IMG/VR virus record: IMGVR_UViG_3300017987_000005
Coordinates: 119,649 to 183,648 of that record
Source of the DNA: a virus
DNA length: 64,000 bases
Direction: 5' to 3' (one strand)
The translations under genes and the position numbers were made by a program. Shown in pieces: positions 1,219-60,434 of the stretch. Numbering within the stretch: the first letter of the stretch is position 1; every line of letters starts with the position of its first letter. The notes beneath the pieces were generated by a model that did not search any database, was not told the DNA's origin, and saw nothing but the letters and a program-made list of their open reading frames with translations.

Positions 1219-4200
1219 CTCCCAACACCAGGCGGTTTCCTATCACCTTCGGTATGTCTGCGAAGAAGGTCCTCACCCGAATACTGAAGAACAGTTTCAT
1301 ATATCTTACGTCCGTCAAGATTCAAAACAACAGGTATAACTACAGTCGGCATTGTAGAAGCTCCGCCTCCTGAAGCTGCGGCGGCTGCGGCGGCTGCTCC
1401 TCCTCCGCCTCCTCGCCCTACAGACATGTCATTATCAATACCGATACTCGCTACTGCGCTGGAGTCCCCGAGTCCTGATATCGGCGCCACGATATTTCCA
1501 GCAACAATATTCATTGACATATTAGCTGACATATCGCCACCACCTCCGAATATCGAACTGATTATCTTTCCAATCAATCCGAATATCCCGAATATGGATG
1601 TCAAAACTTTCAAAAATACTTTGAACAAATCAGTAACAATCTTCACTCCCTCGATAAGCTCAGGGAATAATGAATTTCCAAATAATAAATCGTATATCCA
1701 CTTAAAAACTTTATACGCTAAGTATAGCGGAGCTAAAAATGGAAAAAACAAGAAGGCAACCTTTTTCAACGCCCAGCTAAGTTTTTCAAAAAGTCCGAGC
1801 AACCACTTAAATCCGGCAACTATCCATCCGAATAATATTTTTCCGAACCACAGTAAGAATTTACCAGCATACCATATAGCAGCTCCTACTATAAACAGTA
1901 TCCCGGCTATAAGCAATATTATCGGAGCAAGCCCACTCGCCCACATAGCGGTAGCAAAATTCCACGTAGCAACTACGGCACTCCATACCATAGGAACGAG
2001 AGCTATCAATCCAGAGATAGCTGCTGCTATCGCTTTTGCCGCTAACCCTATAAGATTAAACTTCAAAATAGCAACAGCAGCTATGAGAGCAACAATCGGT
2101 TTAGCGAGTACTTCGAATGCTTTTATCAACCCCTTTGTCGGCTTCAAAAAATCTTTGGCTGCATCTATCCACTCATTAAATTTATCCACGGCGGGAGATA
2201 CAAAATCTACTAAATCATTCCATAAATCGACAAACGGTGTCATCATATCAATCAGAACATTTATTATCCCCATAATCAATAGATTAAGAAGCTTAATAAG
2301 TATCCTGATAATATATACTGCTGCGACTATCGGGAAAAACAGTGCTCCGAGGAATACTCCGGCAACGATAGCGACAGCCTTAAACACTTGAGCAAGTATT
2401 GATACGAGCGACCTGAACATATGCACTAGTTTCTGAACAGCTAATCCAATGGTGCGCATCAAATCAAAAAACGGCTCCAGTACAACTTTTATCAGTCCCC
2501 ATGCTTTATAAAATACGTACCCCAAGAACGCTACGGCAGCGGCTATCCCTAAAACTATCCAAGTTACAGGATTAGTAAGTAATGCCCACGTAAACTTCAG
2601 TACGGCTGCGGTAGCTCCCCATAAAGCAATAATCATTTTCTTAATAGCTACGCCCGCAGCAAATAACTGTGCTTTTCCAAACGCTATTGTCGCTGCTTCT
2701 CCAGCCACTAACCCCGGTATGTATTTGTTCCATATCAATAAAACGTTATTCCACTGCGCTGCCCACCACGCTTTTGACGCTACGGTATTCATCACTGTAG
2801 CAGTAAACAATCCCCAGTATTTAGCAATCAATGCTTGAGTAGAAAGTATGTGATACAGTAATGGAGTAATAAGAATCCAGAAAGCTAATGCTAACGCTCC
2901 TATGGCAGCTAAAACCCCGCCCTTTCCGAGTACTCTCATTAAAGACTGTGTCCACGATATTACTTGCTTTACAGCTCTAATGACTAGCTTAATAGCTGCA
3001 ACGGCGGCAGTTATTGGGAAGAATATTACGGCAATCGCTTTCTGAAAATCAGTACTGTTCCCACTAACTACGTCGAGAATAGAATTCAATATTTTAATAG
3101 AAGCAATTAAAGCGAACACTACTCCGACTACCGATGCTATCGCAGCCCCCGCAAACCCGAACACCTGAGACAGTTTTGATAAAACTGCTGACCCTATCCT
3201 CCCCTGGGCAATCCAGTTCTGAGTAAAAGTCCCGAGCTTTCCGATATACTTTGTTACAAACGCAGTAACCTTACCCCACTGCTTTAACACTTTATTCCAA
3301 ATACTCTGCCACCATACTACGGACATAATATTTGCTTTTAGTATAATGAGCTGCCCCCACAAATACTTAACTCCCTTTGAAGCTGCCGACCATGCTACTT
3401 TCCCGAAGGCAAGCATCTTTGCTCCAGCCCACTTAAGCAGATTTCCAAGTTCAGTAACAGCCTTCCCCTGCATTACCCATACTTTCCAGGTCATCCTCAG
3501 TTGCTTAGTAAACGCTGCATATACCGTGCCCATCTTCTCAGTAGTACGGACTAACAGTTTCTTAGCTAATGTCAATATTCCCATTTTATTAGCCATCATT
3601 GCAGCAGCCCAGCTTCCGCGATTCACAGCGCTCGCCCACTTAATAAGAAGTACTCTGGAAAGCATAAACAGCGTCAGTAGGGCAGATAACCCCGCCATTA
3701 CTATTGTAATAACAGTTACTAACCCTGCGGTAAGTCCTACGAGCATCCATATGGGACGAGGAATCATAAGAAGTGCGGCAAAAAATGCTATGAAAACATT
3801 TATGACAGCTCTCAGCGGAGGAAGTAATGCGGAACCAACGATAATCGCAAGGTTCTTAATAGACCCTATTAAAATCATAATTTTAGCGTGTACTGACGTA
3901 GCTGTAATTGCATACTGCTCATTAAGTTCGGTCCCCTGGCGAAATGCGTTATTAGCAACGCCGACCTGCTTTTCAATATCGCGAACACGAGCAGTCAAAC
4001 CCATGAATACACGAATAGCACGAGCAGCGTTCAGACCGAGTACCTCAATCGCAGGAGCAACTTCGCTCCTACTCAAGTTACCGAGTCGAGTCAACACTCT
4101 GACAAGAATTTCCATCGGTCGTGTCTGGAGCATTGTCGAATATACTTCCTGAGTTACTCCGATAAAATCTGCAAATGCTTTTTGGCGCTTGGACATCATC

Positions 4201-4925
4201 GTCATAAATTTAATCATCTGTGTAGCAGCAACGGTCGGCTGTTCACCGAGGTCCCTGATTACACCGGCAAGACCGATGACTTCAGGAGCAGTGAATCCCA
4301 TCTGACGAGCCATACCACCCATCCTCATTGTGGTCTTAGCGAGGATGTCAGCAGTAGCAGTCGTAGTCGTCGCTACCTTAACCATAGCAGACGCAACTTT
4401 ATCAGCATTCTTCGTCAGGTCCATCCCGAATACTTTTGAGATACGACCAATAGCGATAGCAGATTCAGCTTCAGACATCACTGTCGTTTTAGACAGCTTC
4501 GCGGCAGTAAGAGCACCTTGTTTCAATGCGTCCATTCCACGGACACCGAGACGAGCAAGTTCAACAGCAGTGTTTCCAAGTTCTGCTGCGGACATCGGTA
4601 AGGTAGCTGACATCTCAAGATACGCTTTAGACAGCGAGTTAATATCAGAGACGTGCATCCGGGTAATTCGGCGAAGGTCAGTCATTATGCGTTCCATCTC
4701 GATTGCTTCGCTAACGACCTTTCCCAATCCAACGGCAAGACCTGCCGCTGCGACAGACGCTACGGCAGAGACGGCTGTCGATAAACCCATTACGGCAGAC
4801 TGTGCTTTAAGCGCGCTGACAGCAGTCATGCCGAGATATTTATTGGTGCGCAGGATATTCTCCAAACCTTTCGGTTTTTCAGCGAATACCCGAATGCCCA
4901 TTCCAATTAAACCACGTACTGCCAT
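1209..4925 (-). CDS. tail tape measure protein (TP901-like N-terminal core)
   Basis: 1238 aa, Ala-rich helical N-terminal half, long hydrophobic Trp-periodic C-terminal half; follows the chaperone gene. Confidence 0.9.
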   Translation of the reverse strand: MAVRGLIGMGIRVFAEKPKGLENILRTNKYLGMTAVSALKAQSAVMGLSTAVSAVASVAAAGLAVGLGKVVSEAIEMERIMTDLRRITRMHVSDINSLSKAYLEMSATLPMSAAELGNTAVELARLGVRGMDALKQGALTAAKLSKTTVMSEAESAIAIGRISKVFGMDLTKNADKVASAMVKVATTTTATADILAKTTMRMGGMARQMGFTAPEVIGLAGVIRDLGEQPTVAATQMIKFMTMMSKRQKAFADFIGVTQEVYSTMLQTRPMEILVRVLTRLGNLSRSEVAPAIEVLGLNAARAIRVFMGLTARVRDIEKQVGVANNAFRQGTELNEQYAITATSVHAKIMILIGSIKNLAIIVGSALLPPLRAVINVFIAFFAALLMIPRPIWMLVGLTAGLVTVITIVMAGLSALLTLFMLSRVLLIKWASAVNRGSWAAAMMANKMGILTLAKKLLVRTTEKMGTVYAAFTKQLRMTWKVWVMQGKAVTELGNLLKWAGAKMLAFGKVAWSAASKGVKYLWGQLIILKANIMSVVWWQSIWNKVLKQWGKVTAFVTKYIGKLGTFTQNWIAQGRIGSAVLSKLSQVFGFAGAAIASVVGVVFALIASIKILNSILDVVSGNSTDFQKAIAVIFFPITAAVAAIKLVIRAVKQVISWTQSLMRVLGKGGVLAAIGALALAFWILITPLLYHILSTQALIAKYWGLFTATVMNTVASKAWWAAQWNNVLLIWNKYIPGLVAGEAATIAFGKAQLFAAGVAIKKMIIALWGATAAVLKFTWALLTNPVTWIVLGIAAAVAFLGYVFYKAWGLIKVVLEPFFDLMRTIGLAVQKLVHMFRSLVSILAQVFKAVAIVAGVFLGALFFPIVAAVYIIRILIKLLNLLIMGIINVLIDMMTPFVDLWNDLVDFVSPAVDKFNEWIDAAKDFLKPTKGLIKAFEVLAKPIVALIAAVAILKFNLIGLAAKAIAAAISGLIALVPMVWSAVVATWNFATAMWASGLAPIILLIAGILFIVGAAIWYAGKFLLWFGKILFGWIVAGFKWLLGLFEKLSWALKKVAFLFFPFLAPLYLAYKVFKWIYDLLFGNSLFPELIEGVKIVTDLFKVFLKVLTSIFGIFGLIGKIISSIFGGGGDMSANMSMNIVAGNIVAPISGLGDSSAVASIGIDNDMSVGRGGGGGAAAAAAAASGGGASTMPTVVIPVVLNLDGRKIYETVLQYSGEDLLRRHTEGDRKPPGVGSWK

Positions 4926-50236: not shown

Positions 50237-50740
50237 TTACCATGATTTCCCCAACAATATATTGCTAATCGCCTGCCGCGTAACTCCGAACATAACAGCA
50301 ACCTCACGTTGGGGCTTTGTTCTCCCTATTTTACGAATCTCATTAACATCATTTTCAGATAACTTACTATTAAAATTCAACTCTCCTTTCTGCGGAGGGC
50401 ATATCGGAGCAGTGTAAGTCCCATGAATTATCGAATCACGTATATTCTCACTATGCGTTCCCCACGTCAGATTGGTCAGCCGATTATTCTGTTGGTTTCC
50501 GTCCAAATGCCTTGCTTCCATTCCATCTGGACACGTGCCAATAAATGTCTCTAGCACTAGTCTGTGAACTTCTTTTGAGTATAGTCTTCCTCTTGCACAC
50601 AACCCTACTTTTAGATACCCGTTAGCTCCGGCATTCTGCGCTAGTATAAGTGTCCTCCCAAACTTCTGCGACCTTACCCGCCCAAAGCTACTTACACAAT
50701 AATACTCAAAATCACTAACAGTTTTCCATACTTCTTCCAT
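50237..50740 (-). CDS. NUMOD4-HNH homing endonuclease
   Basis: EVWK....Y.VSSFGRVRS, VHRLVLETF, RHLDGN..NN. Confidence 0.92.
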   Translation of the reverse strand: MEEVWKTVSDFEYYCVSSFGRVRSQKFGRTLILAQNAGANGYLKVGLCARGRLYSKEVHRLVLETFIGTCPDGMEARHLDGNQQNNRLTNLTWGTHSENIRDSIIHGTYTAPICPPQKGELNFNSKLSENDVNEIRKIGRTKPQREVAVMFGVTRQAISNILLGKSW

Positions 50741-50770
50741 ATACTAACTCTTAAAAAGAGATTGTCACCT

Positions 50771-51127
50771 TGGAGGTGGGGGGAATTGCACCCCCGTCCT
50801 GTAATGCCTCATGCATCGCGTCTACAATCATAGCCAGCGAGCGTCGTAATTTAGAAGCTAGTAACTTGTCTGGCTCATTCCTAGCGTTCGAGTCTTCGTT
50901 GGTTTCTCTGCTCTCAGACGGTAAAGACTTCCTCTTCCGAGCACAGCCGATACATTTACGTCCCTCGCTATAATATCGGCGTCATGCAGCAGGGACGGGT
51001 GCGTTTAAGCAGCCATTTTTACTGGTTTTGCATTTATCATGCTTGAGTGGATTGATGACGGGGCCAACCACTCATCCCCGGATTGCAGCTTAACAGTCTA
51101 ACATCCAGTCAAGCCTAAATCACCCCC
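50771..51127 (-). ncRNA. ssrA: tmRNA, tag (A)AKPVKMAA
   Basis: 5' GGGGGTG..GGCTTGAC; 3' GGACGGGGGTGCAATTCCCCC-CACCTCCA with G3.U; resume context ATAAAT-GCA, tag 51031-51005. Confidence 0.93.
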
Positions 51128-51146
51128 ATTTTCAAAGAACAAAATA

Positions 51147-51650
51147 TGGCAGAGGGATGAAGCTTTATACTACGGTAATCCGCACGTCACTTTCTCATCC
51201 TTCGAATGACGATTGCTCAACAATGCGCAAACACAAAGTCTCTACCAAAACGGGAACGTCCGCAGCGAGAGGGATTCTAACCCCCATCTGTCCTTTTGCC
51301 AGCTTTCATGGCTCGGCGCATCACTCCGCCCGTAAATAAATCGTGCTCCGCACACTTCCACTACGAGCCGCTCCCTAGCGGTATATCATAAGTGGCAAGG
51401 CAAGGAATACGGTACGCTATTTTCAGACGCGCGTTCGCCGATATACTAACACGCCCTACTTTTACGTGCCGGCACCTTGCATGGCAACAATGTTAACCGT
51501 GTCCATCCAGTAAACGTTCATTGCTTCAACGATTCCCTCACTTGTAGCAAGGTTCACTCCACTCCAGCTCACTGGTTAAATGGGCAATCAATAATTCCCA
51601 CCCCGGTAAGAAGTTTTTCCGTTCTGAAACTCCAAAACACTCGCCACTAA
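51147..51650 (-). ncRNA. large unassigned structured RNA (~390-500 nt) ending in CCA
   Basis: No credible ORF; GAGGGA..TGAAGC pairs with GCTTCA-TCCCTC-TGCCA; T-loop hairpin GGGGG-TTAGAAT-CCCTC; bounded by boxA motifs. Confidence 0.6.
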
Positions 51651-51664
51651 ATTTCAAAGAACAA

Positions 51665-51778
51665 ATCAGCAAGTCAGCTACGCTCCCCGTTGACAATGTA
51701 GCTGAGCCCTCACTCGGAACCCCGTTGGGCAGCAATCTTTGAATCGCACTGCTGCGAGTGTTTCGCATCTTGCTAATA
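51665..51778 (-). ncRNA. unassigned multi-branch RNA (~110 nt)
   Basis: ATTAGCAAG/CTTGCTGAT closing stem; TGCGA/TCGCA, TCAGCTAC/GTAGCTGA. Confidence 0.55.
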
Positions 51779-51784
51779 ATATCT

Positions 51785-51926
51785 GGTAGGAAGAAGGTTA
51801 TATCCGGTATCAGCTAGCTCCTTTTGCACTCCACGGTTACAGTACGCAAAGTTAAGCATGCACGAAGACGCACGCTCGCGACTCCATCCCTCCACGCACT
51901 ATAAACGCTTCCCCGGAAACTCCCTA
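51785..51926 (-). ncRNA. unassigned rod-like RNA ending in CCA
   Basis: TAGGGAG/CTTCCTA-CCA, TCCGG/CCGGA, apical GCGTGCG stem. Confidence 0.5.
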
Positions 51927-52014
51927 TGTGTTATAAAAGAACGTACCGCTGATTTGACCAGGCTGGCTCAGCGGGCGAAGCCTCGGTAAGTCCGACTACC
52001 ACTGGTAGCGGGTC

Positions 52015-52218
52015 CTATTTATCAACTAACAAACTTATTAAACTAAGGTTATTTTTTATCCGCTCTAACACGACAATATTAAAACAATGAGAATGGTATG
52101 CCTTCTGACGATAACAAGGATTTTCAGGGGCATACTTATCTACTTCAGAAACCATAGGCTCTCCTGCTTTAATACCATTAAAGCATTTAGCACACTTAAC
52201 CATCGGCTTTATCTTCAA
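52015..52218 (-). CDS. small Zn-finger protein
   Basis: CAKC...H..C. Confidence 0.55.
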   Translation of the reverse strand: MKIKPMVKCAKCFNGIKAGEPMVSEVDKYAPENPCYRQKAYHSHCFNIVVLERIKNNLSLISLLVDK

Positions 52219-52402
52219 ATATTATATTAAATTCTTTTCCGCTCATCATTCGGTACTTTATTTCTTTGTTAACAACTTCAATAAAATGCTCCATTAACTG
52301 ACAATCTTTTCGCGCTGGCCCGCCGTGACGGACGGCTGTAAACGAGTCTCCTTCTTTAACGTGAGTCAACCCAGTAACAGAAACTTCCATAATATCACTC
52401 AC
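52196..52402 (-). CDS. hypothetical protein
   Basis: Packed ORF. Confidence 0.5.
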   Translation of the reverse strand: MSDIMEVSVTGLTHVKEGDSFTAVRHGGPARKDCQLMEHFIEVVNKEIKYRMMSGKEFNIIFEDKADG

Positions 52403-60417: not shown

Positions 60418-60434
60418 TATAATTTTCAAAGAAC

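Follow-up and report, generated by a model that had tools for sequence, protein, structure and literature searches.

The gene-free stretch directly upstream of the tmRNA gene of a 184-kb phage very probably contains a gene for a real, structured RNA that is encoded on the minus strand and belongs to an uncatalogued family. The reading that we favor, with somewhat better than even confidence, is that of a noncoding RNA of ∼395 nt that is absent from Rfam and combines a multihelix domain with a tRNA-shaped module serving as a processing handle or dock, a lineage-specific add-on of ∼110 nt being separate from it. The RNA is conserved and noncoding, its strand and several of its helices can be read from the comparison of two diverged lineages, and it is part of an RNA operon with a modular layout.

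A conserved noncoding RNA precedes the tmRNA gene

The IMG/VR record of the phage comprises 183,648 bp with direct terminal repeats, and the stretch of DNA analyzed here, which we call the window, covers 64,000 nt of it (bases 119649-183648). All RNA genes treated here at the tmRNA locus lie on the minus strand. The tmRNA gene itself occupies window positions 50770-51127 (Rfam RF00023, 100.8 bits, E value of 3e-38) and is the immediate downstream neighbor of the ∼395-nt RNA, just as the preliminary description of this DNA had stated. Its sequence is 80 to 83% conserved in the two other lineages available for comparison, which are named here after the contigs L002 and L006. Despite its 100.8 bits in Rfam, the tmRNA in the window was not called by ARAGORN. 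Its tag, read by eye, is AKPVKMAA, and no CCA is encoded after CCACCUCCA; the L006 copy (L006:7785-8157) has ACCA. Altogether, 28 tRNAs were found in the window by Rfam models and 27 by ARAGORN, which called 45 in the whole genome.

The tmRNA is separated from the next protein genes by ∼890 nt (51128-52015), in which every open reading frame (ORF) is at most 76 aa long and the G+C content is 0.48 to 0.51, compared with 0.41 to 0.46 in the flanks. The preliminary description had singled out the tmRNA-proximal 504 nt of this stretch (51147-51650). It placed this interval between two boxA motifs, and copies of the boxA-like motif GTTCTTTGAAA indeed stand at 51662-51652 and at 51140-51130 on the minus strand. 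The first of these is an exact match that lies 3 to 4 nt before the first helix of the ∼395-nt RNA and is kept in the L002 clade, and the second ends 2 nt before the tmRNA 5' end. The statement that the interval holds no credible ORF was also borne out: the longest ORFs measure 57 to 60 aa on the plus strand and 36 to 39 aa on the minus strand, no ORF is common to the window and L002 copies, and the indels that distinguish the window from the L002 relative are 1, 2, 4, and 28 nt long and thus do not come in threes.

The contigs used for comparison were reached through homologs of the upstream 336-aa protein. The metagenomic L002 clade, consisting of L002, L035, and L036 (complete) and L004 (partial), carries the RNA at the same locus with ∼74 to 77% identity and with the boxA-like motif and the tmRNA directly after it. 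The conserved unit of ∼395 nt extends on the minus strand from the motif to ...CUCGCUGCGGACG (51257-51652; counterpart, L002:4311-4738) and comprises the multihelix domain, a linker, and the tRNA-shaped module. Its modules are 77 to 85% identical to L002:4311-4738, whereas the adjacent protein genes reach 67 to 70% at the DNA level, and the window and L002 share stretches of 51 and 33 nt without a single difference, although the lineages differ by ∼25%. Within the window's own lineage, all seven fetched contigs were at least 99.9% identical in this region (five at 100% and two with one mismatch each). Since the comparison thus involves only two diverged lineages, its statistical power is low.

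Wider searches for the RNA or its locus returned nothing. A total of 50,697 phage records were compared with 50700-52100 by blastn in distant mode, IMG/VR was scanned for exact patterns taken from the RNA (three blocks) and from the tmRNA (one block), JGI metagenome contigs were scanned twice, and single proteins served as queries for finding related loci. When a profile of the 336-aa protein was used, it led to three distant IMG/VR phages that have neither a tmRNA nor the ∼395-nt RNA. Contigs reached via the neighboring small ORF all represented the same strain (99.9 to 100% identical), and those reached via the downstream 94-aa protein were too short. No paralog was detected in the phage's own genome by blastn, by nhmmer, or with R1, a covariance model of the RNA's 5' part. 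In another related lineage (L015:137-1306 and L016:46-1215), the homolog of the 336-aa protein lies beside an RtcB RNA ligase gene, and an HNH endonuclease gene follows directly, with no RNA block between.

Comparative evidence for the fold and the strand

Since single-sequence minimum-energy folds of the 400-nt unit were unstable, with no pairs common to both lineages, we relied on comparative structure and on null models. Single-sequence folds of the RNA were also no better than those of shuffled sequences (z score of −1.2). The RNAalifold consensus of the four full sequences contains 114 pairs, with 97% of the cells paired, and 10 of these pairs are compensatory, with changes on both sides; when the partners were slid, 0 to 2 such pairs were observed. 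Because alifold itself rewards covariation, refolding of column-shuffled alignments was used as a further null model (n = 150). This yielded 3.3 ± 1.7 compensatory pairs with a maximum of 8, and none of the 150 alignments reached 10. The alifold energy had a z score of −1.8 relative to the column shuffles.

The strand follows from two observations. Approximately 20 G-U pairs can form on the minus strand only, and the folding energy is −164.8 kcal/mol for the minus strand versus −126.6 kcal/mol for the plus strand, an advantage of 38 kcal/mol. The best-supported helices are H5, H7, H9, and a 4-bp hairpin at 51312-51298. Many consensus helices had a low pair probability when the sequences were folded alone, especially that of L002. 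Given the two diverged lineages, the weak single-sequence folds, and the low helix probabilities, we treat the fine structure as provisional; overall, sequence comparison lends moderate support to the predicted fold. With compensatory changes exceeding the controls and no Rfam family assigned (see below), the original call of a large structured noncoding RNA stands.

Architecture of the large domain and a variable hairpin

The multihelix part of the RNA, Domain 1 (∼260 nt; 51391-51648, minus strand), is closed in the RNAalifold consensus by a 9-bp stem, P1, in which AGUGGCGAG (51648-51640) pairs with CUUGCCACU (51399-51391). Both lineages retain all nine of its pairs; two changes, each on one side only, have occurred. 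The 5' strand GUGGCGAG has three possible partners, including CUUGCCAC (51398-51391) and CUCGCUGC (51269-51262, just after the T arm of the tRNA-shaped module), the most stable option being CUUGCCAC in the form of the 9-bp P1 (AGUGGCGAG/CUUGCCACU). In the modeled fold, closure of Domain 1 by P1 is thus ambiguous.

The P1 strand is followed by an invariant hairpin (GUUUUGG-AGUU-UCAGAAC), by GGAAAAAC, a 7-bp hairpin with a 12- to 14-nt loop, and then by the long H5/H7 arm, inside which the stretches GGAGUGGAGU and CGUUGAAGC are invariant and unpaired. A second long arm, H9/H10, comes after it. Helix H5 (9 bp; 51507-51575, minus strand) joins CCAGUGAGC (51575-51567) to GUUUACUGG (51515-51507) and encloses H7. 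Between the lineages, five of its nine pairs have changed without loss of pairing, in three cases on both sides.

Hairpin H7 (CCUUGCU-ACA-AGUGAGG; 51536-51552, minus strand) is a substitution hot spot that is paired in all five haplotypes observed (window, L002, L035, L004, and L036). Over the 22 nt of L002:4412-4433, which cover the lower part of H7 and the next three bases, pairs of L002-clade contigs differ by 3 to 8 substitutions, whereas the same pairs, which come from different samples, differ by 0 to 2 substitutions over 1.2 to 2.9 kb upstream of and through the RNA. As an example, with CAG replaced by UGA, U-A/U-G becomes U-G/U-A and one A-U pair is added. Judged from the sequences, this variability could be due to either recombination patches or diversifying selection. 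That H7 is a specificity or escape element under diversifying selection, carried by a conserved scaffold with a tRNA-shaped handle, is a speculative idea to which we give little credence; were it true, H7 might act as a decoy or guide in an arms race, its stem sequence being recognized by a nuclease of the host's defense or by a protein of either phage or host. We know of no described class of phage RNA with a fast-diversifying hairpin that always remains paired.

A tRNA-shaped module without an anticodon arm

Domain 1 is connected by a linker of ∼26 nt to a module of 104 nt (51261-51364, minus strand) that aligns to the Rfam tRNA model (RF00005) from end to end. The acceptor, D, and T arms align, and the score of 15.4 bits (E value of 2.8) is below the cutoff of 29 bits. 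The module has the acceptor stem GUAGUGG/UCGCUGC with G73, AA at positions 8 and 9, and the D arm GUGU-GCGGA-GCAC. Its T arm, GGGGG-UUAGAAU-CCCUC (51285-51269), is the T-loop hairpin recognized in the preliminary description and is identical in both lineages; the loop UUAGAAU has an A where C56 is expected. The anticodon arm is replaced by ∼50 nt with two small hairpins, and in the hairpin at 51312-51298, two of the four pairs are compensatory. CCA is not encoded by the module, whereas 39 of the 45 phage tRNAs encode it.

The L002 copy did not match the tRNA model, owing to an extra U in the acceptor stem of the L002 clade, and ARAGORN called no tRNA at the module in the window. We considered whether the hairpin at 51312-51298 could provide a tRNA anticodon loop (7 nt with U33) and rejected this, its loop being UGAAAGC (UGAGAGC in L002), with G at position 33. 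A second copy of tmRNA (RF00023) was rejected as well, as the module has A3-U70 and G73, not G3-U70 and A73. Inspection by eye indicated that short frames are not conserved between the lineages because of the indels and that there is no tmRNA-like tag frame. The permuted-tmRNA model gave only a 15-bit match, which overlaps the real tmRNA. The T arm of the module resembles that of the phage tRNA-Leu(CAA), and the remainder does not; no parent tRNA of the module was identified among the phage tRNAs.

In keeping the acceptor, D, and T arms while replacing the decoding arm, the module resembles YrlA-type Y RNAs of bacteria and phages (PMC4201824), the tRNA-like domain of tmRNA, and mascRNA-type handles. 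It differs from YrlA, in which the ends of the RNA form the Ro-binding stem, in that the module ends here are the acceptor stem, and it differs from tmRNA in the lack of G3-U70, A73, and a tag frame.

The RNA operon consists of exchangeable modules

With at most one mismatch, GTTCTTTGAAA has 10 matches in the window, versus 1.8 expected, which include further copies at 60424-60434 and 63922-63932. Genome-wide, 21 such copies were found (again with at most one mismatch), and many of them precede RNA genes (tRNA, tmRNA, Y-like, and others) by 3 to 26 nt. The role of the motif could be that of a promoter element, a boxA-type site for antitermination, or a site of cleavage. In the copy before the tmRNA, the G of TTTG stands at 51133 and the tmRNA starts at 51127 (+1), which leaves 5 nt between the two, a spacing that resembles that of the Bacteroidota −7 promoter element.

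Each of the conserved RNAs of the locus (RNA-Z, the ∼395-nt RNA, and tmRNA) stands behind a GTTCTTTGAAA-like motif. The order of modules is RNA-Z, a window-only segment of 108 nt, the ∼395-nt RNA, a window-only segment of ∼110 nt, and tmRNA in the window lineage; RNA-Z, the ∼395-nt RNA, and tmRNA in the L002 lineage; and RNA-Z, an L006-only segment of ∼90 nt, and tmRNA in the L006 lineage. The L006 clade thus keeps RNA-Z and tmRNA and lacks the ∼395-nt RNA. Since the module orders differ among the three lineages, the layout of the RNA operon is modular.

RNA-Z (∼165 to 170 nt; window 51778-51946, minus strand; L002:4136-4293; L006:7525-7692) is kept in all three lineages and has its own boxA-like motif, GTTCTTTTATAA. 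Its alifold consensus contains 47 pairs, 17 of them changed on both sides. The stem GGGAG/CUCCC closes the RNA (with CUUCC in place of CUCCC in the window), and after it stands GA- or UA-CCA. No match to RNA-Z was found in Rfam. The window-only 108-nt segment (51670-51777, minus strand) between RNA-Z and the motif of the ∼395-nt RNA occurs in neither L002 nor L006, and it folded no better than shuffles did (z score of −0.96). L035 and L036 differ from L002:4734-4855 at ∼20 positions in 120 nt, and the strains are otherwise nearly identical. From L002:4734 on, L035 and L036 have an allele of their own that takes in the short trailer and the boxA-like motif as well as the tmRNA 5' part, which indicates that recombination between diverged alleles occurs in the RNA operon.

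Such a layout bears on whether the ∼395-nt unit is one RNA. The interval might instead hold two adjoining independent genes, one for a structured RNA of ∼260 to 290 nt and one for a separate anticodon-less tRNA-like RNA, each with its own function. This would agree with the self-contained nature of the module and its end-to-end alignment to the tRNA model, with the ability of Domain 1 to close itself by a 9-bp stem, and with the swapping of operon RNAs as cassettes between lineages. However, both parts occur together in both lineages that have either of them, and there is no boxA-like motif between them, although the motif precedes the other RNA modules. Moreover, two genes would differ hardly at all from the single RNA that we favor once the latter was processed. 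We consider the two-gene explanation unlikely, while it fares best among the alternatives to a single RNA with a tRNA-shaped 3' module.

Comparison with known RNA families

All 4227 families of Rfam 15 were searched by cmscan with relaxed filters and a threshold of E ≤ 10, with window positions 50600-52300 and 51140-51672 and with L002:4136-4760 as queries. GOLLD, ROOL, OLE, raiA, group I and II introns, RNase P, and SRP were all absent at this threshold; the preliminary description had proposed comparison with the first four and with introns, and that comparison thus gave no match. The sole matches in the window and L002 RNAs were the 15.4-bit tRNA and one spurious small match. In a search of the whole genome with YrlA (RF02553) at E ≤ 10, none of the 24 matches fell in genome positions 170776-171318 (window 51128-51670). 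As it matches no Rfam family, we conclude that the RNA is not GOLLD, ROOL, OLE, raiA, an intron, RNase P, or YrlA.

GOLLD and ROOL are large ornate RNAs that are often found in phages or prophages near tRNA genes and whose biochemical function is not known (PMC5737381, PMC12286853). The ∼395-nt RNA is like them in being a large structured phage noncoding RNA beside tRNA-type genes, and it is unlike them in its smaller size, its tRNA-shaped 3' module, and the lack of a match to their models. ROOL measures roughly 580 nt and GOLLD roughly 800 nt, and to our knowledge neither has a tRNA-shaped 3' module.

The closest published arrangement is that of the Cellulophaga phage phi14:2, whose g004-g005 and g005-g006 junction regions are reported to be transcribed early and very strongly and to remain abundant (Drobysheva et al., bioRxiv 10.1101/2020.03.07.982082). 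In the phi14:2 genome (NC_021806), the ORF-free region of the g004-g005 junction (2905-3589) lies upstream of a tmRNA called by ARAGORN at 4031-4500 (∼470 nt; g005-g006; tag GSSVQKLAMVA). Since ARAGORN thus identifies the second abundant region as tmRNA, the first abundant RNA of phi14:2 is located directly before the phage tmRNA. This tmRNA is unannotated in the record, and the Rfam tmRNA model stays below threshold there.

The ∼395-nt RNA might therefore be suspected to be a diverged relative of such phi14:2-type large RNAs, which precede Bacteroidota-phage tmRNA genes, are unnamed, and are not in Rfam. In both cases, a large ORF-free region immediately precedes a tmRNA that is encoded on the same strand. 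However, the phi14:2 region is ∼680 nt long and AT rich and belongs to a 100-kb crAss-like podovirus, whereas the RNA described here has ∼395 nt and ∼50% GC and belongs to a 184-kb phage encoding a tail sheath. Sequence similarity was not detected: a profile nhmmer search of phi14:2 with the ∼395-nt RNA gave an E value of 0.45 for the T arm only, blastn gave nothing, and R1 found nothing in phi14:2 or phi4:1, a family seed alignment being unavailable. Furthermore, a module that is common to phi14:2 and phi4:1 has no counterpart in the window RNA. The likeness is one of arrangement and not of demonstrated homology, and we regard kinship of the two RNAs as quite improbable.

Spacer, add-on, and the extent of the RNA

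The conserved interval might also be a nonfunctional spacer, composed of a decayed tRNA gene and the leader of the tmRNA transcript, which is conserved through recent common descent only. Its weak thermodynamic scores, the existence of a lineage (L006) without the RNA, the tRNA score below the cutoff together with the acceptor bulge in L002, and the fact that only two lineages are known would be compatible with such a spacer. However, at the DNA level the RNA is better conserved than the neighboring protein genes and retains its perfect 51- and 33-nt blocks, its compensatory changes exceed those in both null models, and the variants of H7 always restore pairing. We therefore judge a spacer to be very unlikely.

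The tRNA-shaped module is followed in the window by a lineage-specific 3' add-on of ∼110 nt (51147-51256, minus strand) that ends in CUCUGCCA. It is absent from L002, L035, and L036, in which the boxA-like motif and the tmRNA come directly after the tRNA-shaped module. The add-on folds alone (−31.2 kcal/mol; z score of −2.16), its GGUAGAG pairing with CUCUGCC.

This distribution decides how much of the interval belongs to the RNA. The preliminary description had proposed one RNA of ∼500 nt, possibly a variant of GOLLD or ROOL, in which a domain of ∼390 nt that ends in TGCCA is closed by long-range pairing of GAGGGA..TGAAGC with GCTTCA-TCCCTC. The 6+6 complementary segments do exist (GAGGGA at 51539-51534 and TGAAGC at 51528-51523; GCTTCA at 51163-51158 and TCCCTC at 51157-51152), as does the TGCCA, and a CCA end could be meaningful given that 39 of the 45 phage tRNAs encode CCA. 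As a structure, however, the closure does not hold. Its 3' partner lies, as part of GCTTCATCCCTC...TGCCA, inside the add-on, where it has a local partner within the self-folding segment, and is missing from the sole diverged relative; 12% of sequences simulated with matching size and composition contained such a 6+6 helix; and the GAGG bases are used by H7, which is paired in five haplotypes. Similarly, the segments GTGGCGAG and CTTGCTAC, which were thought to close a 105-nt 5' domain, are present, but their CTTGCT is needed by the covariation-supported H7. The TGCCA (51151-51147) belongs to the add-on and not to the conserved unit, which has ∼395 nt and ends in the tRNA-shaped module. GOLLD, ROOL, OLE, and raiA also gave no match at E ≤ 10. 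The single ∼500-nt RNA is largely refuted by the L002 clade and appears extremely unlikely.

Proposed role of the RNA

We propose that the RNAs of the locus would be made as part of tmRNA/tRNA transcription units. Anticodon-less tRNA-like bodies recruit tRNA enzymes or serve as docks, and the tRNA-shaped module would accordingly be recognized by tRNA-processing enzymes, with RNase P predicted to cut at approximately 51364/51365. Such a cut would release Domain 1 with a defined, stable 3' end, as in tRNA-punctuated transcripts. This processing-handle step, which is modeled on the tRNA-like shape of the module, is put forward tentatively and is possible rather than probable. In addition, the module may mimic a tRNA, either as a dock or as a decoy, and the large domain would most likely bind a protein of the phage's RNA-repair and translation-rescue program. 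In a search for RNA-RNA duplexes between the ∼395-nt RNA and the tmRNA, the score was equal to that of shuffles.

Abundant as they are, large structured phage RNAs beside tRNA or tmRNA genes (GOLLD, ROOL, and the phi14:2 RNAs, for example) have no known function. The ∼395-nt RNA offers several experimental handles in this respect, namely, its compactness, a separable tRNA-shaped module, its natural absence in L006, and a fast-changing paired hairpin. The 184-kb phage has a tmRNA locus composed of RNA cassettes that are interchangeable and each have the same boxA-like motif in front of them, and this layout bears on how phages organize and express RNA-only operons. We regard the RNA as representing a thinly sampled candidate family that is real and interesting.

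A similar element in a Flavobacteriales repeat array

A scan of GTDB returned a 21-mer match to the RNA within a repeat array of one Flavobacteriales metagenome-assembled genome (contigs L042 and L043), with a chance expectation of ∼0.3 matches for a 21-mer in 596 Gb. The array element is probably not homologous to the phage RNA. It is present five times in that genome, to which the array is specific; in the 53 further genomes of the family, only two single sites with two mismatches turned up. R1 scored 15.6 bits on the element, with the hairpin pairs broken. On L043 (positions 1419-2250; G001:C43, an uncultured Flavobacteriales), the array forms an intergenic stretch of ∼800 nt composed of units with AGTGCGAGTGCGGAGTTT(C/G)AGAACGGAAAAACTT, and up to 23 bases of these units are identical to the 5' end of the phage RNA (exactly in one unit and with one or two differences in the others).
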